Source: an uncultured Pseudomonadota bacterium (GTDB taxonomy: Bacteria > Oederibacteriota > Muellerivitia > Muellerivitales > Muellerivitaceae). From it: a stretch of DNA of 64,000 bases. Under the pieces are notes generated by a model. That model worked only from the letters and a program-made list of their open reading frames with translations. It did not search any database and had not been told where the DNA came from. Shown here piece by piece: positions 1-40,549 of the stretch. The DNA is taken from the NCBI GenBank assembly GCA_963770835.1, contig CAVYRH010000019.1, positions 192,001 to 256,000 of the forward strand, given 5' to 3'. Position 1 is the first letter of the stretch. Each line of letters starts with the position of its first letter. The position numbers and the translations under genes were made by a program.

Positions 1-257
1 ATTCCGTCGAGTTTCTTAAAATGCCCGGTTAAATAACGGTCCGTGATTCCCACGCCGCATCCCACGTCCAATATCTTCAAGCGGGTGGGATCTCCCACAT
101 AGCGGCGGGTCAGGTCCAGCAGACAGTTGACTTTGACCCGCGTAAAAAAATCCAGGTCCTGGCCGATGAAGGAAATGGATTTCTGGATCTCCTGCCGGTA
201 GGTTTCTTTATGACGCTCAAAATCCGCGCGGGGGGGTGCTGACGGGGTGGGTGGCAT
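1..257 (-). CDS. Class I SAM-dependent methyltransferase, 5' part (runs off the window start)
   Basis: Not in the ORF track. Manual translation from ATG at 257 gives MPPTPSAPPRADFERHKETYRQEIQKSISFIGQDLDFFTRVKVNCLLDLTRRYVGDPTRLKILDVGCGVGITDRYL..., containing SAM motif I (ILDVGCGVG). No stop before base 1. Confidence 0.8.
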   Translation of the reverse strand, partial: MPPTPSAPPRADFERHKETYRQEIQKSISFIGQDLDFFTRVKVNCLLDLTRRYVGDPTRLKILDVGCGVGITDRYLTGHFKKLDG

Positions 258-688
258 GGATATATTTCACTCCTGCGAAGGATTGGAACCGGCGGATCCG
301 CCGCCCGCAAGTGTACCATATTCGGTGTCTTTTCCACGCCCCGGAGCGGTTAAAGCCCCTTGGGATCTTCACCGCCGTGGCTGTTTCAAGGCAAAGGAGA
401 CTCCGAAATTTGGTCTGGTTTCCCAGAACCTTCCCAACCTTGCCGGACATTGGATTTTCTTGCGGATTAAAACCAAAGTTCCCCGTCCAAATAATCTTAG
501 GTGTCCGGTGGCATTGGCCCAACCTCTCCCCGGTGGGAGGGCTTAAAATTTTTATTCGCCGTTTTAACGGACAGGTATCCAACCGGCGGGATGCCAAAAA
601 AGGTGTTTCCTTGACGGGCGGAAAGCTTTGCAGTATATCTAGGCCGGTATTTCAAACGACTTCGGCTTCGAAAGCGGATTTTCAATCT

Positions 689-3130
689 ATGAAAAACTCC
701 GGCAGGTCATCCCCAGGAACCAAACGGAATAAAATTTCAACACCGGAAAAGCCAAGCTTCCCTCCCCCTTTGCAGCGGGCCATAGCGGTTGGAGCGGGGT
801 TGTTTCTGGGAGGTTATCTCGTCGTAACCCACCAGACGCTTTTCCACACCTTAGCCGGCTTCGCCTTATGGGCTGTCGCGATTTCCCTTTCTTTGGTTTG
901 GTTTCCCCAGGTGCCTGGGGCTGAAATTTTTTCCAGGTTGCTGGCTCCAGGATCGAAAGGAAACCACGAATGGAGTTTGGGGAAAATAACCCTCGTCGGG
1001 ACCGGCGTCCTGGCGGCTTTGGGCCTTTCAAATTACTTCCTGGGACAAACAAGGGTGTGGTTTTTTCTTCTTTCGCTACTCATCCTGGGATGGTGTTTAA
1101 CCCTCTTGGAGGACCACCTCCCCCGCCCTTTGGGTGACCAGGTTTCGGAACCATCCGTGCTCCATAGATTCAGCTTTCCTTGGTCGGCGGTCGCCATCCT
1201 TTTGTGCGGTTCCTTTTTTCTCTTTTACCGTTGGCACGCGCTTCACATAGGCTACGATACGGATGGTATCAAAAGCCTTGAACTGGCCGAAGCCTGCGTG
1301 TCGGAATTCACGACTCCCTACGTGGACGGCTGGGTTCCGGGCAACCCCATCTTTCCCTATTTCCTGATGGGTATTTTCTTTAAGTTGGTGGGCATTTCGT
1401 TTGACAAGGGAGTCCTTTTTATAGCCCTCCTCAACTTGGCGGGTTTTCTTTTCTTTTACGGATTTGCCCGTTTTTACCTCCCCAAGCTGCCCGCCCTGGC
1501 CGCGACCCTTTTTTTTTCCATGTCGCATTGGGTTATTTATCCCGCCCGGGAAATCACCGGAATAAGGGGAATGCTTGTTCCTTTTGAGTGCGCCGTTCTC
1601 TTCTTTTTCGCGCGCGCCTTGGAAAGCGGCAAAGCCCGGGATTATGCCCTTTTCGGGACTCTTCTGGCCGTTTCGGTGTTGATCGGCCTTCAAAACTGGA
1701 TTTTAGTGCTTTTATTCATTCTGGCCCTGTCGATCTTTTGGATATTCCGCCCTTCCCTTATTCAAAACCAAAAATGGTCCTGGGCACTGGCCCTGCTGGT
1801 TGCTCTTCTTTGGTATTTTCCGATCCTCCTTCATTTCAGCGAAGGCAACGCCTATGGCTTCTTCATGGACCAATTCAATACTAAAAGCGTTTGGCACGGG
1901 CCGAGGATTCCTTGGGACAGCGTCTACATGGGCCTGCGAATGTTCAATGTCGGTTCCCAGGAAAACTTGGTGAACTTTCTCCCGCTCTTGAGCCCCTGGG
2001 AAGGGATTTTCTTCCTGGCGGGCTTGGGTTTTTGTTTAAGGCGTTTTTTCCGGCTTTCCTCCCTTTTTGTCATCCTGGGCTTTTTAGGAGGCCTGGCCCC
2101 CGCCATTCTGACGATTGTCAATACCACTTTGAGGTCCTTGACGGCCGTCCCCTTCGTTTTTTTGCTGGTGGGCATCGGATTGGACCGACTGGGGATGGTG
2201 CTGACCGCCCCCCTGGGCCGCCGCGGAAGGGCCTGGGGTTTCCTCTTAGGAGGGGCAATCCTCGTCTTGGCGGCCGGGTGGCACTTCGACGCTTTTTTCA
2301 ACCAGATTCCCCGGTACAAGGATTCTTATTGGATCCCCAACGGGCGGGCTTATCTATTTGGAACCATCACCGCCAAGCACCTGCAGGGATGGGATACCTA
2401 CGTCGATTTGTGGGACGGGACCTACTTGCACCCCGAAAACAATTATTTCTATTCAAGAGCCGATATGGAGAAGGGTCGAAGAATCATTTTCCGCCCGGAT
2501 CAATCACCCCTGCCCTTAAAAAACATCCCTGAAAAGGGCGCCCTTATCCTCTTCCCCGACAAATTGGGAAAAACCTACCGGGATTCGATCAACTATTACT
2601 ACCCCGCGGCCCAGGAGAAGGAAATCCTCAACCCCTTTGGGGATGTGGAATTCCGGTCTTGGGAAATAAGCCCGGTCGAGATCCAGGAGGCCTTGAAACG
2701 GCCGGCGCCTTTGGAAGGCATGACGCTCGGTTATTTTGATGCCCAAGGTCGGAAGCTTGGCCAATGGCAGATCCCCACGCTTTCGGCGGAGCTGCTTAAC
2801 GAAGAATGGTTTGCTCCTTGTACGGATAAACCGCCTTTTCCCTCGGAAAAAATTGCCTATTTCGTGGTTCAGGGGAGTTTAGAGAATCCCGCCGGAAAAG
2901 TTTTGGCCTTTGAAACAAGCGGTCGGGCGGATGGATTCATCGGCAACCGGAAAATCCAACTCGATGGACAGGGTTCCTTAAAGCGCTTCGAGATTCCCCT
3001 ACATTCCAAGAAACCTGATCATTTTGAGATCCGTTATTTCCTTCCAAAAGAAGGAAGGTTCGATCTCAACCTTTGGGAGCGTACACCCTTGGGTTGGGAC
3101 ATGGTCCCTTCCTCGGAATTAAACCCCTAG
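689..3130 (+). CDS. GT-C fold (PMT_2/ArnT-like, GT39/83-like) membrane glycosyltransferase with degenerate C-terminal PA14-like domain
   Basis: Likely start ATG 689 (MKNSGRSS). Many hydrophobic helices, loop GYDTDG, and a soluble C-terminus ending FEIRY...LNLWERTPLGWDMVPSSEL like the PA14 ends of the paralogs. Confidence 0.75.
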   Translation: MKNSGRSSPGTKRNKISTPEKPSFPPPLQRAIAVGAGLFLGGYLVVTHQTLFHTLAGFALWAVAISLSLVWFPQVPGAEIFSRLLAPGSKGNHEWSLGKITLVGTGVLAALGLSNYFLGQTRVWFFLLSLLILGWCLTLLEDHLPRPLGDQVSEPSVLHRFSFPWSAVAILLCGSFFLFYRWHALHIGYDTDGIKSLELAEACVSEFTTPYVDGWVPGNPIFPYFLMGIFFKLVGISFDKGVLFIALLNLAGFLFFYGFARFYLPKLPALAATLFFSMSHWVIYPAREITGIRGMLVPFECAVLFFFARALESGKARDYALFGTLLAVSVLIGLQNWILVLLFILALSIFWIFRPSLIQNQKWSWALALLVALLWYFPILLHFSEGNAYGFFMDQFNTKSVWHGPRIPWDSVYMGLRMFNVGSQENLVNFLPLLSPWEGIFFLAGLGFCLRRFFRLSSLFVILGFLGGLAPAILTIVNTTLRSLTAVPFVFLLVGIGLDRLGMVLTAPLGRRGRAWGFLLGGAILVLAAGWHFDAFFNQIPRYKDSYWIPNGRAYLFGTITAKHLQGWDTYVDLWDGTYLHPENNYFYSRADMEKGRRIIFRPDQSPLPLKNIPEKGALILFPDKLGKTYRDSINYYYPAAQEKEILNPFGDVEFRSWEISPVEIQEALKRPAPLEGMTLGYFDAQGRKLGQWQIPTLSAELLNEEWFAPCTDKPPFPSEKIAYFVVQGSLENPAGKVLAFETSGRADGFIGNRKIQLDGQGSLKRFEIPLHSKKPDHFEIRYFLPKEGRFDLNLWERTPLGWDMVPSSELNP

Positions 3131-3193
3131 GAAAGGAACACTTTGCGCGGCCCCGGATTCTCAGGGTTTCAAGCCTAAAGTCGGGAGAAATTT

Positions 3194-3901
3194 ATGCCAA
3201 AAACAGCGAAATCATCCACAAAGCCGAAACGCCCTTTAACTGTGCGGCAAGAGGGCACCGCCCGGACTTTTCGATCGGCCACCAACAACACCCGCGCCCG
3301 CATTGCTTTTGTCTCTTTACTTTTTGCCTTGGCGTTTTTGCTCACTTTTCATTCCAACTTGCGGATGGCGCGGCTTTGGTTGAGCCATGATGTGTTTGAA
3401 AGGCACAGGCTGAACTTCAGTTTGGAGGGTGTTCCGGCTGAATGGGGATACGCGGCATGGCTGGGCCCGCCACAAGAAATCCCGGCCGGCTCTAGGTTTC
3501 CATGGGAGCAGCCGGCAAGCGAAACGCCGCGGAATATTCCACCTTTACTTAACCATAATATTGGCGGCGGCCCATTGGTGATTAACGGCGTCACCTTCCA
3601 GTCAGGGGTCGGCACCCATGCCCCGGGGAAAATCGCCTTCTCGCTTGACGGAAAATTCAGCCGTTTCTCCTGCGGGGTCGGTTTGGACGCAACCTCAGTC
3701 TTAAGCCGGGGCGTGATTTATACCGTGATCGCCGACGGACGGGAAATCCTCCGAAGCCCAAAATTGAATTCAGACGCCGATCCCTATCCGGTGGACGTCG
3801 AAGTGGGCGGGGTCCATGAGCTGGTTTTGAATGCCGTGCAAACTGATTTTGCCGACACCAGGAGCAATGTGGATTGGGTGAACCTGAAGTTCGAGAAGTA
3901 G
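3194..3901 (+). CDS. Membrane-anchored NPCBM/NEW2 carbohydrate-binding domain protein
   Basis: Basic N-terminus, one TM helix, then the NPCBM pattern PLVINGVTFQSGVGTHAPGKIAFSLDGKFSRFSCGVGLD...VDVEVGGVHELVL...DWVNLKF. Confidence 0.8.
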   Translation: MPKTAKSSTKPKRPLTVRQEGTARTFRSATNNTRARIAFVSLLFALAFLLTFHSNLRMARLWLSHDVFERHRLNFSLEGVPAEWGYAAWLGPPQEIPAGSRFPWEQPASETPRNIPPLLNHNIGGGPLVINGVTFQSGVGTHAPGKIAFSLDGKFSRFSCGVGLDATSVLSRGVIYTVIADGREILRSPKLNSDADPYPVDVEVGGVHELVLNAVQTDFADTRSNVDWVNLKFEK

Positions 3902-3946: not shown

Positions 3947-6900
3947 TCAGCGGATTTCACCAAAGGCTGAATTGGGCACTACTTCCGGCACCCCGTTGGG
4001 CTTCAACCAGATGAACGAGTAGCTCCCAAAGCCTCCTCCGTTATTAGCCGCGAAAGCTTCCACCGAATGGGGGCCTTTCTTTAAAACGAGGCCCTTCCTT
4101 CCGGACTCCGTCGCGTCCTTGCCGTCGATCTTGATTTGTCCCAAATTGGCAGGGGTGAATGAAACCCGGTAGTTTCCAGGTTCCTCGACCATGAGGGTTC
4201 CGCTCCAGCGGATCGAACCGATGGGTTGGGTGGCGAAGTCGTTCCCATTGGTGTAATTCAAAACGGGGTCCCACTCCTCCAAAAAGGGTTCTCCCTTCCC
4301 CTCCGGGTCACGGTAATAACGGCCTAACAAACCCCGGGGGGAGGGCAGGCTGTCAAAGGAACCGGCGTCCAGCATGATGGGAATCCCTGTTTTGGGCGTT
4401 TGTTGGACCGTTAACACCGGTGCCACCGCATCCGGTGCAGTCAGCTCCACTTCGATGGGGTGTTCGCCTTTTTCCAAGTGGAAATAGCCGCCCGGCGCGG
4501 CCTTTTGGTTTTTAACCTGCAATACCGCTTCCGCGTTGCCTTTGAATTCCCACTTGTAATCGCCCGTCTGCGGAACATAAAGGTTTCCGGATAAAACCGC
4601 GTGATAGGGGCCCTTCGGCAGCCCGGCCGGGAACTGGTTGACCTGCGTTTTCTCAACTCCCTCCACTGGCCTGTCGAAAAGGGCGGTCAAACCCCTGACT
4701 TTTGCCACCTCAGAGGGAGGCACCCGGTAAAAATACTCCGCGGTATTTCCCGCCGGATCCAGCAGATAGCCCGCCGTACCTCCGGGATAAAGGTTCGTGA
4801 GCATGTCCAGGACGCCCGTCCGGCCCTGCTCAATGGCGTAATAAATCCCGCGGGAAACGGTCGGGAAATGGGAAATTTGGCAATCGGGTAACAGCAGGGG
4901 ATGGAGCCGGTCCTGGTGGAAGTAACCGAAGAAGTCGATGGTGTAATAATTGAAATACACGGGCGAGATGTAATAGTCGTAATCATCGCCAAATTTGGCG
5001 ATCGCCTTGCCGATGGCCGTTTCCCGGGCCGAGTATTCGGACCAGCTGGAAATGCTCCTCGCCATGATCCGGAAATAAGCATCATAGTTCTGCAGGGCCA
5101 TGAAGAGCAGGGGCAAGGCAAACAACGCCGGGAAGGCCAAGTTCCCCTTCTCGCCAAAAAGGTTCCGGAATCGGCCCCAAAGGGCGGCCAGGGGCAGGGC
5201 CGCCAGCAGGGCGATGAAGGGCGTGGTTCCCAGCATGCGGTTGGCGTGGGCGGCGTCGATGGAAAGCACGCAAGGCACGGTCATCACCAAAAGGCCCACC
5301 AGGCCGTAGAACCAAGGCTTCTTGCGCAGGAAAACCATCGCGCCCACAATCCCAAAAAGGAAAAGGACTGCCGTAACGTCGTCCAACATGCGGTAATCCT
5401 GGATATTGTGGCGGGACATGGCATCCCCGTGCCAGTTGAACATAACAGCCGTGCGCCAGAGGTTGTAGATGAGTGGCTGGTAGTTAGTGACATTCTGATC
5501 GTGCATGCGGGAAAAGATCAGCAGATCCCCTTCCCGGCTTCCCCCCAGCTGCTGCCGAATGTCGTAAGTCCTTTGAATAAATGGATAAGCCAGCACCAGG
5601 AAGACGATGGAAAAGCCCAACAGGGATTTCCAACTGTCCCGGACCAGTTTCCAATGGGAGGCAATTTCGTAGGCGGCGAAGAGCAGAATGAGCAGGGGAA
5701 CGATCTTATAGGCCTGGTAGGTGTAAAGCCCGATGGCGAAGAAGGCACCCGCGATAAGCGCCGAAAGGTAGGATTCCCTGTTCTTATTGGCCTTCCAGAA
5801 ATAAACAACGCAGGCCACACCGGCCAAAAACAAAAGCACCGTCAAAACCACGACCGGTAAATGCATTACTTCCAAGACGGATTTATAGGCAAAGAAGAGG
5901 AAAGGCAGGCAACCTAAAAGGAAGAAAAGCACGAAAGCGATGGCCGCAGGGCGGAAAAACTTTTCTTTCGTGGGGCGCAGGGAATAGGTCAGGAAAGCCA
6001 GTGTGCCGAACAGGTAAAAAGGCACTTCGATGGTCGGGAAGCCGTTTCGGCTGAAATTGACGTTCCAGCGCATGACCGCCAGCACGAAAAGGCCCAAAAG
6101 CGCAACGCGCTGCCCGCCGATCTGCCGGAAGGTCCAATAAACCAGGGGGAAGGTGGCCAGGGACAAAAGGGCATAGAAAAGGTAAAACCCGAATTGGGAC
6201 GGAATGCAGTGGAAAGGCGAAAGGCAGAGGAACCACCCGGCCAATTGGTAAAGCAAAAGGGCGGGATTCTGCCAGACATCGAATTCCCAGACCGGCCAAT
6301 AGGAATGTTCGTGAAGGATGCGAAGAGCCGACCAGCCTTCCATTCCCTGGTCGATAAACATGCCCGAAGGCATGGAACCCAACCGGAAGATCCTAAAAAA
6401 GGCCGCCAGCAACAGAATGGCCCCGAAGGCAAAACACTCCACCCTTCCAGGGAGCGGCGCGGGTTCGGGTTCACCTTTAGTGCGAAGCAGGAAAAGGCCG
6501 GCAGTGAAAACCGCGCCAGCGAGGAAATAGAGGCCCCAAAGACCCCAACCAGGAACCTGGGAGGAATTCACCACTGCGGCCTGGCAAAGCCCGCCGATGA
6601 AAAATCCCAGTAGGACCAGGACCAGTCCGGCCCAAGTAAGCGGGGTGGGGCCGGTTCCTTTCCATCGCAGGGACAAAGAACGGCCCGAGGTGCTGCGGCG
6701 GGCCTTCCCCGCTTTGGGAGGCGGGGAGGGGCGGCCGGTCCCTTTCCGGGGCTTAGGCAAGCCTCCGAGCAGGACCAGCGCCAGCAGGGCCAGGGGTACG
6801 GCCAAGAGGGTAAACCCCAGGACCACGCTTCCTTTATGAATCAGCCAAACCCCCGCCGCCGACAATAGGAGGGCATAGGCGGTGACGGCATTTGGATGTA

Positions 6901-6994
6901 AAAGGGATAAAAGGAGGTTTTTAAGGTGTAAAAAAACCGGGGGACGGCGGAATGAAGTGGATTTCTTTATGCGGGATTTCTTCCGGGTTGCCAT
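3947..6994 (-). CDS. GT-C (PMT_2-like) glycosyltransferase with two C-terminal PA14 domains
   Basis: 1015 aa. FFRIFRLGSMPSGMFIDQG loop, multiple TMs, and PA14 motifs SGNLYVPQTGDYKWEF and RGLLGRYY...SIRWSGTLMVEEPGNYRV...KKGPHSVE. Confidence 0.85.
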   Translation of the reverse strand: MATRKKSRIKKSTSFRRPPVFLHLKNLLLSLLHPNAVTAYALLLSAAGVWLIHKGSVVLGFTLLAVPLALLALVLLGGLPKPRKGTGRPSPPPKAGKARRSTSGRSLSLRWKGTGPTPLTWAGLVLVLLGFFIGGLCQAAVVNSSQVPGWGLWGLYFLAGAVFTAGLFLLRTKGEPEPAPLPGRVECFAFGAILLLAAFFRIFRLGSMPSGMFIDQGMEGWSALRILHEHSYWPVWEFDVWQNPALLLYQLAGWFLCLSPFHCIPSQFGFYLFYALLSLATFPLVYWTFRQIGGQRVALLGLFVLAVMRWNVNFSRNGFPTIEVPFYLFGTLAFLTYSLRPTKEKFFRPAAIAFVLFFLLGCLPFLFFAYKSVLEVMHLPVVVLTVLLFLAGVACVVYFWKANKNRESYLSALIAGAFFAIGLYTYQAYKIVPLLILLFAAYEIASHWKLVRDSWKSLLGFSIVFLVLAYPFIQRTYDIRQQLGGSREGDLLIFSRMHDQNVTNYQPLIYNLWRTAVMFNWHGDAMSRHNIQDYRMLDDVTAVLFLFGIVGAMVFLRKKPWFYGLVGLLVMTVPCVLSIDAAHANRMLGTTPFIALLAALPLAALWGRFRNLFGEKGNLAFPALFALPLLFMALQNYDAYFRIMARSISSWSEYSARETAIGKAIAKFGDDYDYYISPVYFNYYTIDFFGYFHQDRLHPLLLPDCQISHFPTVSRGIYYAIEQGRTGVLDMLTNLYPGGTAGYLLDPAGNTAEYFYRVPPSEVAKVRGLTALFDRPVEGVEKTQVNQFPAGLPKGPYHAVLSGNLYVPQTGDYKWEFKGNAEAVLQVKNQKAAPGGYFHLEKGEHPIEVELTAPDAVAPVLTVQQTPKTGIPIMLDAGSFDSLPSPRGLLGRYYRDPEGKGEPFLEEWDPVLNYTNGNDFATQPIGSIRWSGTLMVEEPGNYRVSFTPANLGQIKIDGKDATESGRKGLVLKKGPHSVEAFAANNGGGFGSYSFIWLKPNGVPEVVPNSAFGEIR

Positions 6995-7176: not shown

Positions 7177-9645
7177 TCAAGGGCCTGCAGGAGAAACCCC
7201 GCCGTCTTGGGCGAGGTCGTCCAGGGGCTCGGCCCATCCCTCCGGGTCGGAACGTACCAGGACTTGCGGAATTTGGTGTTCCTGGTTAAACGCGGTTAGG
7301 ATTTCGGCTTCATGCTTTCCCACAGCCAGGTTCAGCTTCACCGATTTGAGGAACAATCCCGTGGGCCGTTTGACCTCCAATATTTCCCGGCCATCCACCC
7401 AAAGCTGGCTGGTATTGAGGGTCTGGAGGATAAAAGTGTAGTCACCCGACTTGGGTGCGATCAAGGTTCCCGAAACGCGGGCCGTATTGCCGCCGCCCAT
7501 GTAGTCAAGGGAGTCGGCGTCGTTCCAGTGGGCCTGCCGGTCCTCGTAGCGCATCAGGCCGCGGCCTAGCCCCAGGTTCCCGTAAAACCTCCGCCACCAA
7601 AAGGAACCCGGCTTGTACTCGACGTAAAAAAGGTCCTTGGAGTTTTGGGTGATCTGGGCAAAGGGGATCACAACCCAACGCAGGACGATCTGGGGATAAT
7701 CCAGGGACTTTTCATGCCATGTGCCGCCCGGATAGGCCTGGCTTAATTTGGTTTGGCAGGCGGTATCCCCGCCGGCCATGATCACCGCCAAATCCTTTCC
7801 CTTTTCCCCTTCCTCTAGGTCGATGGGGTTGGAAGCGAGCATCTGATGAGCGTCCCGGCCCTCACTGATCAAATCGATGGCGGATTCGCCGAAATAACCC
7901 TGGGTCGAGGCCGTGTAGATACGATCCTGTGGAAGGGTGTTCATCACGTCCTGCGACAGGGTATCCGGCCAGCGCATGTCCATCCACTTTTTCAGTATCT
8001 GGATATTGGAGGCCAGCATCCAGAGGCCGAAGAGCAAAAGCAGGGCCGTACCCCAGGCCCCACCTTTCTTCACCGGGGAGAGGCGGAAAGCCTGCCACAA
8101 CCGGTAGGCGCCCCAGGCGGCGATCAGATACATGGGAAGAAGGGCGGCCATGAGCCGGTTGGAATGGGCGCCGTGGGTGACGAAGAACGAGGTATATCCG
8201 ATGAAGAAAAGGCCCAGGACCGAGGCTTGGATTAGGCGGGGCTTGGCGAAAAAGGAGGCCAGGGCCGCCGCCCCAAAGGCCGGGATGAAGAAATCCATGT
8301 AGGAATCCTCATGCATGGGGGGAATATTCCAAAAGGGATTCGTGTCGTCATAGCTGAACATCAGCCGGAAGCCGTTCCAAAATGTCGCGAAAAGGTATCT
8401 CCAGGCTTCAGCCAGGGCGAGCCCGTAACGCGGGTTGAAGATCACCGTCTCATTGGCATGGTCCGAGTAGACGGGTTGTGCCCAAAGCGGGCTTAAAAGC
8501 AGGGCTGTCAAAAGGGCGCCCGTGGCCCATTTCCAGGTCCAATCGTTCCCCCGGGTCTGCCAGCCGGCCCAAAGATAAAGCGCGGCCAGGACCAAAACGA
8601 TGGCCGGCAAACCCGCCCCTTCAGCGAAAAACCGCACGCCCGACCAGGAGTGGGAAAGCACGACCTGGTTGACATAGGCGAAGGCGAAAACCCAGCCGGC
8701 CATGACACCGAAGGCCAGGGCCCAGGTGGCCCGGCTCTTCGGCCGGGTTTCGGGGCGCCAAAGGATCCACAACCACAAAAAACCTATCACCGCGGGGGTC
8801 CATAAGCGGAAGGCCACGTAAATCCACGACCCCAGGGCCATGGCCAACCCCCATTGGATGAAATGGGACAGTTTCGGGTTTTTCAGGAGCCGGAAAAGGA
8901 AAAGCAGGGTCAAGGCGCAGGCCAGCACATCCGTGTGGAACCCAAAATTGATTTTGGAAATCTGGATAAGGGTCTTGCTGATGGTGCCCATGGCCATGAG
9001 GATCAATCCCCCGCGCCGGCCGCCAAATTCCTTGCCCAGCAGGTAAAAGGACCAAAGGATGAAAAGATCCACCAGGACCGAGGAGAGGGTCAGGGCGACG
9101 TTGGCCGTGGCCTGCGGTATGAGGGACCAGACCCCTGCGGAAAGATAGGCGAAAAAGGGCTCCCGCAGGCCGTAGGGCAGGAGGATGGGCCTGTCCCCGT
9201 ATTCCATGATATCAAGCGCCTCGTGGGCGCACATCCAGTGGTCATTATCGATGCAACCCGAAATACGGTTGATGTCATGTAGCCTTAAGGCGGCTCCCAG
9301 GACCAGCAAAGCGAAAAAAAGAGGCCGGGAAACCCGCGTGGGGAGGTCTTCGACCATGCCATTCTCCGGAAGGCGGCGGAAAAAATAAACCAGCCCCACG
9401 AAGCCGGCCAAAAGGAGGAAATAGAAAACCGTGGTCGGAAAAGGACGCCAAAGGGGAAGCACGAATTTGGCGTTGGGAAGGGTGAAGAGCGCTAGCAACA
9501 CCAGGACCCAGGAGGCGATCAGGCCGGCAAAGCCTCGGGCCGGAAGGGTCTCCGGTGCGGGGGCCTTGACTACGGCCGGTTTCCCGCCCCTCTTGGGCTT
9601 CAACCCTTTGGGCGCAGGACGCTTTTTCCCGGGACGGGAGGCCAT
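7177..9645 (-). CDS. GT-C (PMT_2-like) glycosyltransferase with C-terminal PA14 domain
   Basis: ALRLHDINRISGCIDNDH loop, GLREPFFAYL, many TMs, PA14 VSGTLIAPKSGDYTFIL...LWVDGREIL...GKHEAEI. Confidence 0.85.
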   Translation of the reverse strand: MASRPGKKRPAPKGLKPKRGGKPAVVKAPAPETLPARGFAGLIASWVLVLLALFTLPNAKFVLPLWRPFPTTVFYFLLLAGFVGLVYFFRRLPENGMVEDLPTRVSRPLFFALLVLGAALRLHDINRISGCIDNDHWMCAHEALDIMEYGDRPILLPYGLREPFFAYLSAGVWSLIPQATANVALTLSSVLVDLFILWSFYLLGKEFGGRRGGLILMAMGTISKTLIQISKINFGFHTDVLACALTLLFLFRLLKNPKLSHFIQWGLAMALGSWIYVAFRLWTPAVIGFLWLWILWRPETRPKSRATWALAFGVMAGWVFAFAYVNQVVLSHSWSGVRFFAEGAGLPAIVLVLAALYLWAGWQTRGNDWTWKWATGALLTALLLSPLWAQPVYSDHANETVIFNPRYGLALAEAWRYLFATFWNGFRLMFSYDDTNPFWNIPPMHEDSYMDFFIPAFGAAALASFFAKPRLIQASVLGLFFIGYTSFFVTHGAHSNRLMAALLPMYLIAAWGAYRLWQAFRLSPVKKGGAWGTALLLLFGLWMLASNIQILKKWMDMRWPDTLSQDVMNTLPQDRIYTASTQGYFGESAIDLISEGRDAHQMLASNPIDLEEGEKGKDLAVIMAGGDTACQTKLSQAYPGGTWHEKSLDYPQIVLRWVVIPFAQITQNSKDLFYVEYKPGSFWWRRFYGNLGLGRGLMRYEDRQAHWNDADSLDYMGGGNTARVSGTLIAPKSGDYTFILQTLNTSQLWVDGREILEVKRPTGLFLKSVKLNLAVGKHEAEILTAFNQEHQIPQVLVRSDPEGWAEPLDDLAQDGGVSPAGP

Positions 9646-15881: not shown

Positions 15882-16258
15882 GATTCCTCCCAAAAATGCT
15901 GGATTTAACGGATGAGCCCTTTCCCCGTCCATGGAACAACCTGGAACTGGGGAAACCGCCGGACAATACGGCTTCCGGGCTTAAACTTTCGCGCTCACGG
16001 TTTTCTTTTTAGCGATTTTAATACCGCCAAAGCTAGATAATCTTCATAATTCAGACCCTGCCACAAAGTTCAAAACATCCGCATTAGGTCGTGCGGAAAG
16101 TTCAAAGAGCCATTAACATTTTCAAAACCGACTTTTGAGGCAGTAGCATATCGCAAAATCCGCCCCTTGGCTTAAAGTTTTTATGACGAAGGGAGTCCCG
16201 CCAAATAAAAACAAGGGAACAGCGCCTTGTCATCCACAGCCCTATAACAAATCCAGGA

Positions 16259-28711: not shown

Positions 28712-28847
28712 GGAAACCTCCCTTTTGGACTTGGTGTTGTCCCGAAAACTTGCATAGTTTACCAGCAAATGTTTCTTTGAGCAGCTTTCAGGTAAAAAAT
28801 CACGCCGGATCCACCCAGCGGCGCCTTCTATCAGAGGAAAAATAGGG

Positions 28848-29792
28848 CTAGGGGCCGAACTTTTCAACACGGTCGTTTCCCCAATCGGTCACGAAAACCT
28901 TTCCGGTTCCGTCCAACGCGATCCCGGCCGGGTCGTTGAACTGTCCTTTACCTTTGCCTGCTCCCCCCCATTGAGACAGGTAGGAGCCGGAGGAAGTGAA
29001 CATCTGGATACGGTTATTTCCTGAATCCACCACGAAAACCCTGCCCTGGCCGTCCACCGCCATGCCCTCCGGGGTATCGAACTCGCCTTTCCCTACGCCC
29101 GGCTTCCCCCATTTCCCCACAAAATTGCCAGTAGAGCCGAATTTTTCAACGCAGTTATGGTTGGTGTCGGAAACGTAGATATTTCCCTTCGAATCAACGG
29201 CCGTGCCGATGGGCATGGCCAATTGGCCGGGGCCCTCGCCCCCTTCTCCCGCCAGGGCCACAAAGCCCCCGTCGGGGGTGAACTTTTCCACCCGGTTGTT
29301 GCTGCAATCCGCCACCACCAACATCCCCTTGGAGTCCAGCGCTAGAAGGACGGGGTCAAAGAGCTGTCCCTTGCCATCGCCCCGTTCCCCCCATTGGGTC
29401 ACATAGTCACCGGAAGAAGTGTATTTTTTGATGCGGCTGTTGAGGGTGTCCGCCACATAGACATACCCCTGTTGGTCCACTGCCACACCGAGGGCGTGGT
29501 GGAGCTGGTCCCGGCCGCTCCCTTTGGTCCCCCATTGGTTCACATAGTTTCCGTTGGAATCGAAAACCTCGATGCGGTCATTGGCGCAATCCGCGACATA
29601 GACGTTTCCTTTCCCGTCTACGGCGATGCCGTAGGGGTTCCATAACTCGCCTTTTCCAGGGCCTGAACCGCCCCATTGGGCTAAAAAGGAAGGATGAGCC
29701 TCCGAAGGCCCGTCCCCCAGGGCGACCGAAACCGATGCCAAGGCGGCGAGGAACAGGCAGCCGGATATCGAAAAACTTGATTTCAAATCCAC
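28848..29792 (-). CDS. Secreted six-bladed NHL-repeat beta-propeller
   Basis: GTG after AGGAGG, signal peptide, then six WGxxGxGxGQ(L/F)xxPxGxAVDxxGNVYVAD-type repeats. Confidence 0.9.
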   Translation of the reverse strand: MDLKSSFSISGCLFLAALASVSVALGDGPSEAHPSFLAQWGGSGPGKGELWNPYGIAVDGKGNVYVADCANDRIEVFDSNGNYVNQWGTKGSGRDQLHHALGVAVDQQGYVYVADTLNSRIKKYTSSGDYVTQWGERGDGKGQLFDPVLLALDSKGMLVVADCSNNRVEKFTPDGGFVALAGEGGEGPGQLAMPIGTAVDSKGNIYVSDTNHNCVEKFGSTGNFVGKWGKPGVGKGEFDTPEGMAVDGQGRVFVVDSGNNRIQMFTSSGSYLSQWGGAGKGKGQFNDPAGIALDGTGKVFVTDWGNDRVEKFGP

Positions 29793-32831: not shown

Positions 32832-32848
32832 TTGAATAGCCTTTGTCT

Positions 32849-33631: not shown

Positions 33632-33632
33632 A

Positions 33633-34913: not shown

Positions 34914-36806
34914 TTACCTTTTCTTATTCTTAACTTTCGGTTTCTTCCCCAGCACATGCCACAACCCGTAAGCCAGGAATCCCGCACAGGTGGCGAAAGC
35001 CGCACCCGTAGCAACTTCGCCGGTGTTCTCGTCCACCGATTCACAGGCGATGCCGTTGTCCATCTTGGCGCTCTTCAGGAACTTCAAGGCCCGGTCCTTC
35101 TGTCCCGCCAGGAGGCTGTTCACCGAAGCCAAGACCCAGGGGTGAGGCGCGTGGCCGCAACCCACTTCCTCAAAGGGTTTGCCCGCGAAGGAATAGGGGT
35201 AGTCGGCCGAGTAAATCCAATCTCGGCATCTCTTCCAAAGGGGATAGGTGGGTTTGCAAAAGCCGTAATGGGGCAATAGGAGTAGGCTTCCTGGGGGTTC
35301 ATCGTAAAGCATGTGGCTTTGCTTCGTGTCCAGGTCCACCGACCAGGCAAACATGCGTCCCTTGGGCCCCTTGGTCACGCAATAACGGATGATGGCGGCT
35401 TTCACCAAGTTCGCCTGCCGTTGGAGCAGGCCGATCTTACGGGTCAAAAGCTTGTTCTTTTCCATGCGGTAAATCTGGGCCAGATCCGATAGGGCCCGCC
35501 AGGCCAGAACGTTATCGTAAGTCACATAACGCTGGGGCCAGGGGTCATCGGAAGGCAGGAGCCAGGTCTGGTAGAGGTCCTTTTTCGGGTGTTTTTTCTC
35601 AGCTAATTCCTTCTCGAACCGGTCTAGGCTTTCCCGCACCCCCGGGTGGTTCAAGAAACCCAGGTCCCGGGTGGCTTCCAGGTAGGCCCGAAGGGCGATG
35701 ATGGGGGCGCAAAACTCGTCCAGCTCAAACCCGGGCTCCAGCACCGCGCCCGAAAGGTAGCGGCTATGCACCCCGAAATTAGCGGACTGCCGCCCAAAGA
35801 CGTAACCGAGGACTTTTTTGGCCCATTCCGGGTCCAGGGCTAAAATCGAAGGGAAAGACCAAAGCAGGGTGTCGCGGTCCCAATAGGCCCCACTTACGTA
35901 ATACCGGGGGCTTCGGGAGGTGAGGCAGACCACCTCTTCGGTGTCGATGGTCACGCCGGTGGCGTAAAAGCGGTTGAAGAAGGCGTTGGTGTTCATCATG
36001 GAATCCAACTGGGGGTCCTTGGTCTTGGTGATCCGCCGTTTCCCCTCCAGCCATTTCACTGTTTCCTGTCGCAGGGCGCGGCCACCCTTACGCTGGAGCT
36101 CCCTTGCCGCCGCGAAGGCGCCGATCTCATCCAGGCTCAGCCCGAAATAGAAGTGGGTTTGCCAGGTTTCCCCGGGCTTCAAATCCTTCGATTGGAGCCA
36201 ATGCAACAATAGGTTCTCCTGGGGGTCCACCAGGGTTTCACGGCCCGTCGGGTTGAGGGCCTGTAACCCTTTTCGGAAAAAGATGCGGCTGCTTTTATCC
36301 GGCGGATAGGGAGCGAGGGATAACAAAGGGGCCGGGGAACGAAATTCCAAAGCCGGCATATTCTCCCAGGTCTTGGACACTAGGACCCGGTCGCCCCGCA
36401 AGGGCTTGGTCACGTTGATGCTGTGAAGAAGCGCGGCCCAGGACAACTCCACGGTAAAGCCGCAATAAAGGGTTTCGAGGGAAACATTGGTGGCTTTCAT
36501 GGAAAGCACGAAGCCCCGCGCCCCCGGCGGGCAAAAATAAACCCCCTCCAACTCGAGGGGTTCTTCTTTCACCGAGAACTTCGGCAGCCAGTCCGATTGT
36601 CTTTCCCAGGCCAGGCGGCCTTCCAACAGGAACTCTCCGTCGTTCACCATGACCCGGGGGGTTAAAAAGGGCATGGAGCCGCCCGAGAAGGCCAAGAGGC
36701 CGTTCACCCCCATGTGAATCACGTTCACCTGCTCCACCGCGCCGTCTTTGGCGCGGATAGTGGGCAGGGCCACATATTCATTGCCGGTCGGGAAATAGGA
36801 TTCCAT
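34914..36806 (-). CDS. Glycoside hydrolase, GH125-like (metal-independent alpha-mannosidase, (alpha/alpha)6 barrel)
   Basis: AYWDRDTLLW, FELDEFCAP, PSDDP, YVTYDNVL, YDEPPGSLLLLPHYGF, HPWVL, GIACESVD, FATCAGFL. Confidence 0.75.
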   Translation of the reverse strand: MESYFPTGNEYVALPTIRAKDGAVEQVNVIHMGVNGLLAFSGGSMPFLTPRVMVNDGEFLLEGRLAWERQSDWLPKFSVKEEPLELEGVYFCPPGARGFVLSMKATNVSLETLYCGFTVELSWAALLHSINVTKPLRGDRVLVSKTWENMPALEFRSPAPLLSLAPYPPDKSSRIFFRKGLQALNPTGRETLVDPQENLLLHWLQSKDLKPGETWQTHFYFGLSLDEIGAFAAARELQRKGGRALRQETVKWLEGKRRITKTKDPQLDSMMNTNAFFNRFYATGVTIDTEEVVCLTSRSPRYYVSGAYWDRDTLLWSFPSILALDPEWAKKVLGYVFGRQSANFGVHSRYLSGAVLEPGFELDEFCAPIIALRAYLEATRDLGFLNHPGVRESLDRFEKELAEKKHPKKDLYQTWLLPSDDPWPQRYVTYDNVLAWRALSDLAQIYRMEKNKLLTRKIGLLQRQANLVKAAIIRYCVTKGPKGRMFAWSVDLDTKQSHMLYDEPPGSLLLLPHYGFCKPTYPLWKRCRDWIYSADYPYSFAGKPFEEVGCGHAPHPWVLASVNSLLAGQKDRALKFLKSAKMDNGIACESVDENTGEVATGAAFATCAGFLAYGLWHVLGKKPKVKNKKR

Positions 36807-36825
36807 TAAAAGGTCCTTTTAACCT

Positions 36826-37001: not shown

Positions 37002-39068
37002 TTAGTGGCTCATTTTACTTAATAAACCCAACCCCCGCTTGGCTTCGGCATTTTCGGGTTGAAGTTCCAGGACCTTCCCAAAAAGCTCACGCGCTTTGTC
37101 GAAGTTGCCCGTTTGAAGGGCCGTTATCGCCCAATTGAAATAGGCGACGGTATACCGGGGATTCAGCCGGGTCGCCTTTTCGTACCATCCCATGGCTTCC
37201 GTGAGGCGGCCCAAATGGAAATTGGCGTTGCCCAGGTTGTAATTGAATTGGGCGTTTTCCGGCTCCCATCGCTCGGCCCACTGGAAATTTGCGAAACAAT
37301 TCTCGTAAAAATGATCCATCCTTAAAAGGTCCGCAGCCTTGGACCTCGGGGAAATCTTGGCCTTGGCATCGTCTCCCTGGTCTTCGTAATAGATGCCTAG
37401 GTTGTTGCGGAAGGCGCCGTAGTCCCCCACGATCACGCTTTGGGTCCGTTCATCCATTGGAAACCCCGGCTCCTTCAGGTGCCGCAGCCGCAGGCCGCCC
37501 CAAATAAAATCAGCCAGTGCCTCATCCAGCACCGGCTCCTGGCCTTCCAAATAGCCTTTGCTGGTCAAACCGTAGGGGACTTTTTTCATGCCAGGAAAAA
37601 GCCCGTCCTCGACCTCGTTATAGCTGAAATAAACCTCCCGCGAGGGGTTTTGATCCACCATCCATTTGGCCATGGGAGCAATCGACTCGGTACCCACTGG
37701 ATAGGAGGTCCGGGGCACCTTGAGCCCGGGGTGGAATAGGGCGAGGTTTCTCCGGACCCATTCCATCGGAAAGCCGTTCAAGCCGATGACGGCCACATCC
37801 GGCCGTTTTTGCCCGATCCATTGTAAATACCAACAGGGGAAGACGACCGAATCACCCTTGCAGAAGTAAAGGCTGTTTTGCGGCAGTGATTTAAACCCGT
37901 TCAAGACATAGTCGTAATCATAGGTATAGTCGGTCTGCCGGTCCCGATGGATGCGCCAGTCCCCAAGGCCCGCCAGCAACAGGACTAAAGCCCCTGCTAA
38001 AATCTTCCCGGCTCTTTCCCGCCAAACTCCTTCCCTTTCCGCCAGGGCGGTTTGCAAGCCCCAGGCCGAAAACAAGAGTGTGAAGGCTTGCGACGGAATG
38101 ACATAATTCTGGATCAAGTAAAATTGGTCAGTGGGCAACCCCAGGTAAAAAACAACGCTGGCGGATAAACCCAGCCAGAGCACTCCCAATGCCAGGGTCC
38201 AAGGTTTATTCTTGGCGTAAACCTTGGCCATCCCCCAAAGGGCTGCCACGAAAAGCCCCGCAAACTCCAGGAAGCTCGACTTCAGGAAGATCCAGCCCTG
38301 TTCGAACCGTCTTCCCAGCCCTCCCCCGCCACCCGTATTGGCGTATTGGCCCCTCAGGAAATCAAAGACGAAGTTATGCCATGTGGAAGGGTTTCCCCAG
38401 TTCAGCCAGGGATTCTGGAGCGCCCTGACCGGCAAAAAGAGGTAAACCGAAAGGCCGATCAGGAAAAGAACGAGGGATTGGTAAATCCGGCGCCTTTCAA
38501 TGCCTTCTTCCTTACCCCGGAAGTAAAGCAGGACTCCCAACCCCGGCAAAAAGGCCAGCATGGTCATCCAATGGTTGGTGAAGGAAAGCCCCAGCAGGAA
38601 AGCCGCCAACAAAAGCCGGTTTTCAAAAAGGGCCCAGAGGATCGCGGTCAGGAAAAGCGTCGTGAATTGGTAGATGCCCGTTTTGGCGCTCAAGGCTGCC
38701 GGATAAGTGGTGGCGCCCACCGCCCACAAGAGGGCGAAGGGAGCGGCCAACCGGGGTGAAACTTTAAGGGAGTGTTTTAGGAAGCCGTACATCAGGGCGC
38801 AAACCGAGGCCGCCAGGAAAGCGGAGAAAAGATTGACCCGGAATGGGAACTGGGCGAGGGGCAGCGCCGAAAAGAAATGACCCAGGAGGGTATAAAGCGG
38901 ATAACCCGGCGGGTGGGGGATGCCCAGGAGGACGCAGGCCGTAATGGTTTCGGGGCTGTCATCGGTATAAAAGGTTGGGTTGAGGCCTACAAGGCCAAAG
39001 GCAAAAGCCGTCAAAAAAACGAAGGGGTAGCTATAGCTTTCTAGTCGGCGGGAAGTGGAATTTTCCAT
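37002..39068 (-). CDS. DUF2723 / TMEM260-like protein O-mannosyltransferase-family GT-C with C-terminal TPRs
   Basis: ATG 39068. DDSPETITACVLLGIPHPPGYPLYTLLGH signature, GLSFTNHW, YLFLPVRA, WGNPSTW, GDSVVFPCWYLQ, RPDV, and TPRs YNLGNANFHLG...AYFNWA. Confidence 0.88.
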   Translation of the reverse strand: MENSTSRRLESYSYPFVFLTAFAFGLVGLNPTFYTDDSPETITACVLLGIPHPPGYPLYTLLGHFFSALPLAQFPFRVNLFSAFLAASVCALMYGFLKHSLKVSPRLAAPFALLWAVGATTYPAALSAKTGIYQFTTLFLTAILWALFENRLLLAAFLLGLSFTNHWMTMLAFLPGLGVLLYFRGKEEGIERRRIYQSLVLFLIGLSVYLFLPVRALQNPWLNWGNPSTWHNFVFDFLRGQYANTGGGGGLGRRFEQGWIFLKSSFLEFAGLFVAALWGMAKVYAKNKPWTLALGVLWLGLSASVVFYLGLPTDQFYLIQNYVIPSQAFTLLFSAWGLQTALAEREGVWRERAGKILAGALVLLLAGLGDWRIHRDRQTDYTYDYDYVLNGFKSLPQNSLYFCKGDSVVFPCWYLQWIGQKRPDVAVIGLNGFPMEWVRRNLALFHPGLKVPRTSYPVGTESIAPMAKWMVDQNPSREVYFSYNEVEDGLFPGMKKVPYGLTSKGYLEGQEPVLDEALADFIWGGLRLRHLKEPGFPMDERTQSVIVGDYGAFRNNLGIYYEDQGDDAKAKISPRSKAADLLRMDHFYENCFANFQWAERWEPENAQFNYNLGNANFHLGRLTEAMGWYEKATRLNPRYTVAYFNWAITALQTGNFDKARELFGKVLELQPENAEAKRGLGLLSKMSH

Positions 39069-39094
39069 GGCGTGGCATTTTATCGCCATTTCCC

Positions 39095-40549
39095 CTAGTG
39101 AATTAAAATGATTCTCTTGGATTTGGTGCTGAAGGGCTCCACCAGGTAAAAAACGTAAACTCCGCTGGCGCAGGTGTCCCCATAGCGGTTGGTCCCGTCC
39201 CATTGGTAGGACTGGCGGAACGGAGTGGTGATCTGCCGGGAATCGAGCGTCTTGATATATTCCCCCGCCGAATTGTAGATCACCAATTCGTAATTCCCCG
39301 ATCCGGCGTTGTATTCAACATAGAGGGAAACCGGGGACGCGGGGGTGAAGACGTTTTTGGAGACGTAAAAGATGTCGGTGGTGGAGAAGGTGGAAGTGGG
39401 CGTGGGCGAGGGGGTGAAAGTGCAGGTGTCGCCAGGCCAGCCGCAGGGGGTGAAGGTGGGGGTGGGCGTCGGGGTATTGGTCGCGGTGTTGGTGGGGGTG
39501 AAGCTGGCGGTCATAGTGGCCGTGGAGGTGGGCCGCACGTCCTCGGTCGGGGTATTGGTGGGCGGGATCGTGGGGGTGTAGGTGGGAGTATTCACCACCG
39601 GAGTGAAAGTGCAGGTATTGCCCGGCCAGCCGCAAGGCGTCCAGGTGGAGGTAAAGGTGGTGGTGGGGATCGGGGTCCACGTCCAGGTGGGAGTGCAGGT
39701 ATTGCCCGGGTAACCGCAGGGGGTTCCAGTGGGAGTGGAGGTGAGGACGCTCGTGAAACTGTTGGCGGCGATAAGAACGTTCGAATCCATCAAGCAGTCC
39801 CCCACGTCGGAGATGGCCAATTTGATGTGGTTGATGACCCCCGGATTCACGGCCGCGGTGGCGGTCAAGACCGTGGTCAGCCCGTTCATGGCGGTGGCAA
39901 GCCCCGCCGGGGACCGGACCACGGCACAGGTTCCCCCCTCGGGGGACCCGATGTTGTCGATGAAATAAACGGGGTTGACGCAGTCGTTGACGTTGTTGAT
40001 GGAGACGTTGGTCGTGGTTCCCGGAATCAGGGCCACGTTGGTCCCGTTCACGAAAAAGCCGAAGACGTCGTTGTAGTCGGACCCTACCCAGCCGTTGTAT
40101 TCCTCCGAGGCGAACACATATTGGAAGGAAACGGTGTTGTAGGTCGGGATGAAATCGAAGGAAAGGACCGTGGCGTCATACAGGTCGCTGACCGGAAGGC
40201 CTTCCAAGGCGGCCAGGTCCGTGTCCCCCGGAAGATTGTTGCAGGTGCTGCTGGTATCCGTGGCGACGCCCTCGACCCCCGAGGCCAGCCCGGTGCTCAG
40301 GATGATCCCCGAGTTGATGCCGAAGGCCTGTCCCCCGCCGGCGAAAGTGCCGGAGGATTGGCCGGTGCCCGCGTAGGTGATATTGCTTGCGGAAACCCCT
40401 GTTCCCATGAGGACGTTCACCAGGACGGAGGGGCTTTGGGTGCCCAGGTCGATTTCGACGATCTGGCCCCAAGCCGTCCGGCTTCCTAAAAGAAAAAGCA
40501 AAACCAGTGCCCACTGGGAACCACGTGGAAAAGATGAGCCTTTTTTCAT
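39095..40549 (-). CDS. Secreted choice-of-anchor L domain protein with Thr/Pro linker and FlgD/T9SS-like C-terminal domain
   Basis: Signal peptide, GIILSTG, DATVLSFDFIP, FQYVFASEEY, YNDVFGFFVNG, IKLAISDVGD..DSNV, TPT repeats, and C-terminal NVFTP...IYNSAGE...WDGTN..G...SGVY. Confidence 0.85.
   Translation of the reverse strand: MKKGSSFPRGSQWALVLLFLLGSRTAWGQIVEIDLGTQSPSVLVNVLMGTGVSASNITYAGTGQSSGTFAGGGQAFGINSGIILSTGLASGVEGVATDTSSTCNNLPGDTDLAALEGLPVSDLYDATVLSFDFIPTYNTVSFQYVFASEEYNGWVGSDYNDVFGFFVNGTNVALIPGTTTNVSINNVNDCVNPVYFIDNIGSPEGGTCAVVRSPAGLATAMNGLTTVLTATAAVNPGVINHIKLAISDVGDCLMDSNVLIAANSFTSVLTSTPTGTPCGYPGNTCTPTWTWTPIPTTTFTSTWTPCGWPGNTCTFTPVVNTPTYTPTIPPTNTPTEDVRPTSTATMTASFTPTNTATNTPTPTPTFTPCGWPGDTCTFTPSPTPTSTFSTTDIFYVSKNVFTPASPVSLYVEYNAGSGNYELVIYNSAGEYIKTLDSRQITTPFRQSYQWDGTNRYGDTCASGVYVFYLVEPFSTKSKRIILIH

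Follow-up and report, generated by a model that had tools for sequence, protein, structure and literature searches.

The 64,000-nucleotide stretch analysed here (the window; G000:C19:192001-256000) comes from the 4.58-Mb, 96% complete genome of an uncultured bacterium, and contains an array of membrane glycosyltransferases that is conserved within the family and comes with interchangeable cassettes for sugar donors. The array includes six PMT_2-like transferases of the GT-C class with PA14-type tails. We consider the chance about even that these PA14-type enzymes, with a DUF2298/Agl23 core, put sugars on threonine-rich linkers or on glycans already there, the window being a variable decoration node. 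The system as a whole is likely protein O-glycosylation, a variant of the known kind that pairs GT2 and GT-C enzymes.

PMT_2+PA14 proteins form a large unstudied family with no assigned acceptor. They fill 6,906 clusters at 50% identity, a number that includes E values up to 1e-30 and PA14-only matches. No description of a GT-C + PA14 family was found in the literature searched, which held few subscription papers and no supplements.

PA14-tailed transferases and threonine-proline linkers across the phylum

We scored 61 genomes of the phylum as positive when they held at least 20 TPTxTPT sites and a best match of E <=1e-50 to profile A1, built on the type-A PA14-tailed transferases described below. 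Both traits were present in 44/61 genomes and neither in 17/61, with 0 discordant. The co-occurrence that an earlier reading of the sequence (the original prediction) had proposed as a test thus held for the PA14 type in this phylum (44/44 TPT-rich genomes, 0/17 TPT-poor). At most 17 candidates were scored per genome, so the A1 match numbers are not copy numbers. In the window's genome the TPTxTPT DNA pattern occurs 886 times, compared with 20 for the reversed control. TIGR03662 (DUF2298), a family to which gene neighbourhoods had pointed, exceeded its curated cut-off in the identical 44 genomes.

Control families were retained in the TPT-poor genomes. TMEM260-like proteins were present in 57/61 genomes, with 2-16 matches in each of the 17 TPT-poor ones. 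YfhO was positive in 17/17 TPT-poor genomes, but in only 1/9 of family f10, while a C-terminal sorting tail was present in 61/61 and LpxC was kept in 4/5 TPT-poor genomes tried. Since the tail, TMEM260-like, YfhO and mostly LpxC are kept in the 17, the loss is specific and does not reflect general streamlining. The original prediction had YfhO and DUF2723 proteins acting on TPT linkers as well. Both families are kept where TPT is absent, and as neither tracks TPT we did not favour YfhO or the TMEM260-like proteins as the TPT enzyme. TMEM260-like genes are expanded to as many as 16 matches per genome in the phylum, and among 14 control genomes only Bacteroides thetaiotaomicron had matches. A function for bacterial TMEM260-like proteins was not found in the literature searched.

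Linker proteins and their sorting tail

The genome encodes 131 Thr/Pro-rich open reading frames (ORFs), so the three in the window are no enrichment. An Ig-like tail was found in 109 proteins (at the C-terminus in 108), and 88 of them are Thr/Pro-rich. Ser/Thr linkers occur in 92/109 tail proteins here and in 1/30 tail-protein loci of TPT-poor genomes. Genome G047 carries 4,967 TPTxTPT sites in 5 Mb, over five times the count in the window's genome.

The tail resembles the sorting domain of type IX secretion systems (T9SS), and 20 tails match the C-terminal domain (CTD) of the PorU profile itself (best E 4e-10); the three window tail proteins gave no NCBIfam match to Por_Secre_tail. There are 32 PorV-family matches in the genome, many above cut-off, and 14/24 PorV genes lie <=2.5 kb from a tail gene. 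For the PorU protease, CTD-length matches only and no protease domain were found in this 96% complete genome. Near lpxC, a 1994-aa SprA-like gene (116.6 bits vs a cut-off of 200) is followed by a 1557-aa tail protein (G000:C5:192794-203454; L258). The combination of SprA-like and PorV proteins without PorU suggests a reduced or variant T9SS-like export outside Bacteroidota. The available part of one study describes Goldbacteria/FCPU426 as cellulase-rich (PMC7031533).

Gene content of the window

Pfam was run on 44 window ORFs, with an NCBIfam scan in addition. The earlier gene list proved essentially correct: eight GT-C-type transferases, a GT2, a split transketolase, NPCBM, NHL and GH125 were all recovered. 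The features are as follows, with genes named below by their start positions (SAM, S-adenosylmethionine; MFS, major facilitator superfamily).

1..257, - strand: class I SAM methyltransferase, start only (motif in translation); the gene extends upstream of the window, with orthologs in the same place in G021, G043 and G059
236..3130, + strand: GT-C (PMT_2) whose PA14-like tail is divergent; the gene probably starts near 689; orthologs in G055 and G059
3194..3901, + strand: membrane-anchored NPCBM/NEW2 carbohydrate-binding module (Pfam E 8e-25); accompanies the 236 ortholog
3947..6994, - strand: type-A GT-C with two PA14 domains (A1 profile E 1.6e-230)
7177..9645, - strand: type-B GT-C + PA14, family-specific tandem clade (Pfam, alignment)
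9649..12204, - strand: type-B GT-C + PA14, structure modelled (Pfam, model)
12228..14843, - strand: type-B GT-C + PA14 (Pfam, alignment)
14871..15932, - strand: membrane-anchored NHL beta-propeller (Pfam; synteny)
16259..18511, - strand: YfhO-family GT-C (37.9 bits vs cut-off 28.5, C-terminal part only)
18767..20439, + strand: split transketolase, N chain 18767-19540 and C chain 19474-20439; best match the split-chain transketolase 6YAK (E 1e-47)
20295..22397, + strand: NAD-dependent epimerase/reductase fused to GtrB-like polyprenyl-phosphate GT2 (Pfam; GtrB match)
22452..24193, + strand: donor-cassette pair of class I SAM methyltransferases (Pfam); travel with the transketolase and epimerase-GT2
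24174..26744, + strand: fused MFS/spermidine-synthase-type membrane protein (NF037959 62.7 bits, cut-off 40); orthologs in G021 and G055
26822..27910, - strand: weak GtrA-like domain fused to methyltransferase; orthologs 71-80% identical
27914..28870, - strand: class I SAM methyltransferase, conserved next to the GtrA-methyltransferase
28848..29792, - strand: exported NHL beta-propeller (Pfam); adjoins the 29819 ortholog in G055
29819..31969, - strand: type-A GT-C + PA14 with a structure model; alignment A1 was seeded with it (Pfam, model)
32065-32760, + strand: haem-oxygenase-like iron enzyme, CADD/BesC-like, below cut-offs; locus edge
32849-33631, - strand: 260-aa protein with no Pfam or NCBIfam match, facing the haem-oxygenase-like gene; locus edge
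34914..36806, - strand: GH125-like glycoside hydrolase (E 1e-19); adjoins the TMEM260-like gene in G021 and G051
37002..39203, - strand: TMEM260-like (DUF2723, GT117-like) GT-C with TPR tail (PF11028 69.3 bits vs 24.2; TPR matches)
39095..40549, - strand: secreted protein with choice-of-anchor L, Thr/Pro linker and FlgD-Ig/T9SS-like tail, one of the 109; outside the conserved locus
40709..46448, - strand: gene for an NHL/Kelch Thr/Pro-linker secreted protein, split by IS256 (Pfam, repeat analysis)
42752..44107, + strand: IS256-family element (inverted repeats, 10-nt target duplication)
62197..64000, - strand: C-terminal part of a 1340-aa protein with GH5, long Thr/Pro linker and tail (24% Thr)

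Two entries in the original prediction needed correction. Its three Thr/Pro-repeat proteins are real, with 40709-46448 being one gene split by IS256 and 62197 the end of the 1340-aa GH5 protein. Its six SAM-binding enzymes are six SAM-binding proteins, one being the fused MFS/spermidine-synthase-type protein and another cut by the window start. The genome holds four identical IS256 copies and one at 91%, and the identical copies indicate that the element was recently active.

The haem-oxygenase-like gene and its 260-aa neighbour (32065-33631) are well conserved in G043 and G055 (67-87%). Several other genes are ordinary: rpoN, hpf, ptsN, hprK, a CofD/YvcK-like gene, mannose-type phosphotransferase system (PTS) IIA/IIB/IIC, HPr and PtsI at 46744-59191, with a GH57 alpha-amylase/glucanotransferase gene inserted among them, and amidohydrolase and S1/P1 nuclease genes at 59633-61993. 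Rfam gave 0 matches within the window.

Domains, motifs and folds of the transferases

The six PMT_2-like proteins fall into type A (3947, 29819), type B (7177, 9649, 12228) and the divergent 236. PMT_2 was matched in Pfam by 236 (37 bits), 9649 (26.4) and 29819 (34.6), and below cut-off by 3947 (20.1 bits; cut-off 26.1). PA14 was matched by 7177 (24.9 bits) and 29819 (29.6), and slightly below cut-off by 12228 (23.3). All six align. The original prediction gave each a PA14-type tail, but that of 236 is PA14-like by alignment only, and jackhmmer recovered no other PA14 for it. Throughout the genome, jackhmmer found 48 GT-C-like proteins, excluding the two DUF2298 genes, and four of the paralogs outside the window are of type A. 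Among 26 paralogs scanned with Pfam, 21 matched PMT_2, YfhO, TMEM260-like, PA14 or TPR. One YfhO-like paralog is fused to an FkbM methyltransferase (L014:3334-6294; G000:C26:729331-732294), linking methylation and transfer in one gene.

An Asp in the first loop is invariant in 6/6 of the aligned window paralogs, and D103 is invariant in 31/31 rows of alignment A1. The residue that follows this Asp in the six is Q, L, H, H, P and G. PF02366, the PMT domain, had no Pfam match on window proteins. In the TMEM260-like 37002, a first-loop D-S-x-E-T motif is conserved among five paralogs (DDSPE in the window copy), and its Asp is a candidate equivalent of human D52.

In AlphaFold models of 29819 (pLDDT 91.4) and 9649 (pLDDT 80), the GT-C core is joined by a periplasmic domain resembling that of ArnT/STT3 and by PA14; the GT-C assignment of the other six transferases is by profile or alignment. 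Against known structures, the 29819 model matched STT3 (Z 28.6, root-mean-square deviation (rmsd) 5.9, 437 aligned), ArnT (25.4) and Pmt4 (23.9), and its PA14 fold matched 6QE7 (Z 17.0). The 9649 model matched STT3 (Z 22.1), Pmt4 (21.0), ArnT (20.6) and PA14 (14.4; 6QDI). Sequence identity in the matches to STT3, AglB, ArnT and Pmt was ~10%. Being nearly tied, these matches leave the fold silent on the acceptor, and we abandoned naming an acceptor from it, as scores tie between protein and lipid A enzymes.

PA14 lectins carry an adjacent Asp-Asp motif that binds calcium and sugar, and it is visible in the 6QE7 row of our PA14 alignment. This motif is absent from 9/9 readable PA14 tails among 10 genome paralogs, and D-D/N stands in its place in 3/21 A1 and 8/25 A3 matches. 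A role of PA14 as a classic lectin or glycan-binding extender, part of the original prediction, was therefore rejected.

Sugar donors and conservation of the locus

The polyprenyl-phosphate GT2 named earlier is indeed GtrB-like, but it is fused to an NAD-dependent epimerase/reductase domain. Its GT2 half matched structures of GtrB and ArnC, is nearest to GtrB (sll0501, E 4.7e-67), and scored below cut-off for PgfS (217 bits, cut-off 500) and ArnC (154). The GtrA domain of the original prediction is a weak one (17.7 bits vs a cut-off of 26.1, profile 2-117), although no match elsewhere in the genome is better, and is fused to a methyltransferase. The lipid-phosphate-sugar/GT-C chemistry of the original prediction is supported as the putative chemistry of the locus.

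The cluster extends ~12 kb upstream of the window with GT9, three GT2, WecE, PhyH, hexapeptide transferase and WbqC genes. A DPM-synthase-like GT2, matching 5MLZ (E 2e-27), and GT9 lie 9-11 kb upstream. The WecE (over cut-off)/WbqC/hexapeptide transferase/PhyH/GT2 cassette points to an N-acylated amino sugar. A review (PMC12247030) relates the proposal, which lacks an in vitro demonstration, that split-gene transketolases attach a hydroxyacetyl branch to keto-sugars. A separate one-chain transketolase is encoded elsewhere in the genome, which makes a housekeeping role for the split enzyme unlikely; it is likely dedicated to a branched-sugar donor. A predicted sugar donor cassette of split transketolase, epimerase-GT2 and methyltransferases is also present on a Methylobacterium megaplasmid (L259:7215-13300; NZ_AP014705.1; ~54% identity). 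Distant homologs of the PA14-GT-C proteins fuse GT-C, PA14 and NHL in one longer protein, which ties the NHL genes of the window to the transferases.

We compared synteny over stretches from 12 relatives. The GT-C/NHL/YfhO/GtrA-methyltransferase array recurs across family f1, flanked by GT9-GT2 and often by TMEM260-like/GH125/PTS genes, and the donor cassettes vary; the epimerase-GT2 query had matches in 14/31 genomes. Type B is strong in family f1 only (11/11). In G008, G021, G027, G033 and G051, the array is found in synteny with GT9 and a DPM-like GT2. G038 and G047 alone have TPT genes next to the locus, and G008 and G051 continue to PtsI without TPT genes. As predicted earlier, no Wzx or Wzy was recognised in the locus (no Pfam match in the window); outside the window, 3 Wzx-type and 10 Wzy_C matches were obtained in the genome.

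The DUF2298/Agl23 core in Chloroflexota and archaea

Among distant GT-C-PA14-NHL homologs, 77/79 loci were titled Chloroflexota, a figure biased to that architecture by the long matches from which alignment A4 was made. Acidobacteriota-dominated PMT_2+PA14 clusters are also listed in the Atlas. LpxC was not found in 4/4 Chloroflexota genomes tried, whose completeness is not given, and was found in one deltaproteobacterial record tried. L094, a record titled Borreliella garinii with a Chloroflexota-type GT-C-PA14 gene, is probably a mislabelled metagenome bin.

In 44/79 of the distant loci, a neighbour came from a cluster with a TIGR03662 representative, and 13 had an Agl23-like neighbour, below cut-off. 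Two genomes of the phylum, G015 and G027, hold TIGR03662, NHL, GT2, PA14-GT-C and Agl23-like genes in one locus. In the window's genome, a fixed-copy locus (G000:C2:29415-43582; L256:5415-19582) encodes an Agl23-like/PMT protein, a DPM-like GT2, two NHL proteins and DUF2298 proteins of 837 aa and 2050 aa. As a target, this locus is probably preferable to the window.

TIGR03662 was present in only two of 14 control genomes, those of Haloferax volcanii and Methanosarcina acetivorans. DUF2298 is presumably placed in the GT-C clan. A function for it was not found in the literature searched (few subscription papers, no supplements), which held one table mention beside a PMT2/PA14 gene. The natural split of the phylum points to Thr/Pro linkers as the acceptor, and draws in DUF2298, a family also encoded by an archaeon amenable to genetics.

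Proposed mechanism and alternative explanations

In established systems, a GtrB/DPM-type GT2 attaches one sugar to undecaprenyl phosphate, a GtrA-type protein flips the product, and a GT-C then carries out the transfer in the periplasm. Here, each cassette would supply one modified sugar. The split transketolase and reductase/epimerase-GT2 may yield a hydroxyethyl-type branched sugar, and the WecE/WbqC set an N-acylated amino sugar. The C2:29415-43582 locus would do the first step and the variable window paralogs would then decorate, with NHL propellers as putative accessory partners of the transferases. The acceptors would be the Thr-rich linkers of ~90 tail-sorted secreted proteins, or glycans on them, while the acceptors of the YfhO and TMEM260-like members are probably different ones. 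If true, this would account for the way in which a lineage that degrades polysaccharides protects or extends ~90 stalked surface enzymes.

A bolder version, which we regard as rather doubtful, joins DUF2298/TIGR03662, Agl23-like, PA14-GT-C and NHL proteins into one undescribed O-glycosylation pathway for threonine-rich stalks, common to the phylum, to Chloroflexota and to halo-/methanoarchaea. In it, DUF2298 would act as the initiating enzyme and be a candidate for the one in archaeal S-layer O-glycosylation, and window-type arrays would add strain-variable, branched, methylated sugars to a mucin-like coat with ~15,000 encoded Ser/Thr sites.

Several results weigh against glycosylation of the linkers by these enzymes. 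The thresholds behind the 44/17 split, 1e-50 and 20 sites, were chosen after data inspection; negatives reach 4.9e-42 and positives begin at 9.8e-54. On an RpoB tree of 25/61 genomes, from which f15 is absent (no RpoB match), the pattern takes ~2 changes, giving 1-2 independent pairs, and the negatives as a single clade were not rejected (p-AU 0.216). With ~2 changes, the co-occurrence is suggestive and not statistical. In G001, G009, G034 and G039, TPT counts differ from the reversed-pattern control by about twofold or less, and copy numbers do not correlate among the 44 genomes (rho 0.19, p 0.21). Tail genes near GT-C genes numbered 7 vs 8.9 expected within 5 kb, 17 vs 15.6 within 10 kb and 26 vs 26.4 within 20 kb. 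The local linkage claimed by the original prediction thus fell away: there is no positional excess, and the array persists in relatives where no TPT genes lie beside it. With 48 GT-Cs and 109 tail proteins showing no positional link, the adjacency to TPT genes in the window is a matter of chance. Such linkage was also rejected in Chloroflexota-type loci, with a Thr/Pro-rich ORF in just 5/79.

Further points against come from the enzymes and from Chloroflexota. The six window proteins lack the PMT-type DE motif in alignment, a motif invariant in the Chloroflexota-type GT-C set, and the folds fail to separate protein from lipid A acceptors. Profile-profile comparison of DUF2298 with A3 gave a probability of 1.8% and there was no PDB sequence match, leaving a GT-C fold for DUF2298 putative. 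In 121 Chloroflexota, scored with A3 on five candidates per genome and with NHL-only matches included, the TPT link is weak: medians were 8.3 vs 3.3 sites/Mb for GT-C positive and negative genomes (p 0.005 for genomes >=3.5 Mb, 0.077 for 2.2-3.5 Mb, kin not being independent). Among 57 positives, 12 were near TPT background, and 11/43 negatives were TPT-rich; this comparison leaves out 21 ambiguous positives, and the result with all 78 is similar. TIGR03662 was positive in 86/121, and its link to TPT vanishes within size classes (p 0.78, 0.56). The weak Chloroflexota link argues against a strict GT-C/TPT rule.

The array may instead consist of hypervariable GtrABC/ArnT-like side-chain modules acting on a lipopolysaccharide (LPS) core, O-antigen or other envelope polysaccharide made elsewhere, with the TPT pattern due to shared ancestry. 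We hold this possible, with more doubt than belief. The LpxC in the genome marks a lipid A-making diderm, Wzx-type and Wzy_C proteins are encoded outside the window, and the ArnT fold matches are high. GT9, with the DPM-like GT2, accompanies the locus in five relatives. The transketolase/epimerase-GT2/methyltransferase cassette lies inside Wzx/wecBC-like polysaccharide clusters in G021 and G059, whose genes were named from their sequence starts without a profile scan, as well as on the Methylobacterium plasmid. In G021, moreover, array and cassette are on different contigs. The single self-contained assembly line of the original prediction is not borne out by this arrangement, and with PA14 lacking the Asp-Asp motif the model of an assembly line for an extended, methylated glycan stands unproven. 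Known acyl-branched sugars are LPS components, in the available part of PMC9306805. Set against this, PA14-type relatives are abundant in Chloroflexota where LpxC was not found, which argues against a lipid A-only role; the TPT-poor phylum members that keep LpxC are without the PA14 family, and the partner family TIGR03662 matches in two archaea. On this explanation, the window would be an unusually large but ordinary envelope-decoration locus.

We think it unlikely that proteins or a glycolipid are glycosylated mainly at sites other than TPT linkers, such as folded domains of membrane or S-layer proteins, with PA14 and NHL selecting acceptors. Neither the TMEM260-like nor the YfhO expansion depends on TPT, and 13/86 TIGR03662-positive Chloroflexota have <10 TPT sites. 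In IPT domains, the target of human TMEM260 is beta-strand Thr (PMC10214176). However, this leaves unexplained why two families split 44/17 together with TPT, while tail proteins persist without linkers. An oligosaccharyltransferase-like role for the PA14-tailed enzymes, with transfer of N-linked glycans, is very improbable. STT3/AglB gave the top Z values, but at ~10% identity, rmsd ~6 A and near ties with Pmt and ArnT. Some homologs weakly match Pfam STT3. The window proteins had no STT3 Pfam match, the donors are GtrB/DPM-type monosaccharide loaders, and only 160/1440 linker Asn lie in N-glycosylation sequons.

Comparison with known systems

In streptococci, GtrB/PgtC2 and PgfS/PgfM1, pairs of GT2 and GT-C enzymes, glycosylate Ser/Thr-rich disordered regions, and YfhO homologs also modify teichoic acids (both in the accessible part of PMC12041528). 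As in GtrB/PgtC2 and Pgf (PgfS/PgfE/PgfM1/PgfM2), our system is predicted to use a GT2 on undecaprenyl phosphate, an extracytoplasmic GT-C and Ser/Thr-rich acceptor regions. An epimerase lies beside the GT2 (here fused to it), and a YfhO-family GT-C is present (16259). Unlike Pgf, it belongs to a diderm with 48 GT-Cs, its TPT-tracking family is PMT_2-like with PA14 and not YfhO, its GT2 misses the PgfS equivalog cut-off, and it has exotic donor cassettes and T9SS-like cargo tails.

With GtrABC/ArnCEFT it shares a GtrB-like GT2, a weak GtrA-like domain and GT-C in one locus, and mobile cassettes. It differs in its many paralogous GT-Cs with PA14/NHL and in a GtrA that is below cut-off and methyltransferase-fused. 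Unlike ArnT (GT83), the PA14 family is not confined to lipid A producers, as the four Chloroflexota genomes indicate. The GT-C core (Pmt4 Z 21-24, rmsd 3.9 A), the first-loop Asp and the nearby DPM-like synthase recall PMT/POMT (GT39), whereas the absence of the DE motif and PF02366 from the window, and the extra ArnT/STT3-like periplasmic domain with PA14, do not.

TMEM260 (GT117) is an O-mannosyltransferase with distant bacterial homologs, by the available text of PMC10214176, and 37002 resembles it in its PF11028 domain and TPR tail. Agl23 is a putative flippase supplying N- and O-glycan donors in Haloarcula (accessible part of PMC11182771). As in the Chloroflexota/archaeal clusters of TIGR03662 and TIGR03663 (Agl23), the same gene set of PA14-GT-C, NHL, DUF2298, Agl23-like and GT2 is grouped in Chloroflexota and in the phylum. 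In contrast, GT-C, PA14 and NHL are fused there and split here, and the type-B tandem clade is private to f1. The Ig-like tail matching the PorU CTD profile, the many PorV-family genes and the SprA-like protein are features of Bacteroidota T9SS cargo and export, from which the system departs in having no PorU protease domain found, SprA below cut-off and very long Thr/Pro linkers. Judged by its predicted proteins, the system works like a known kind of system, yet on the features tested it is not a member of PMT, ArnT or Pgf.

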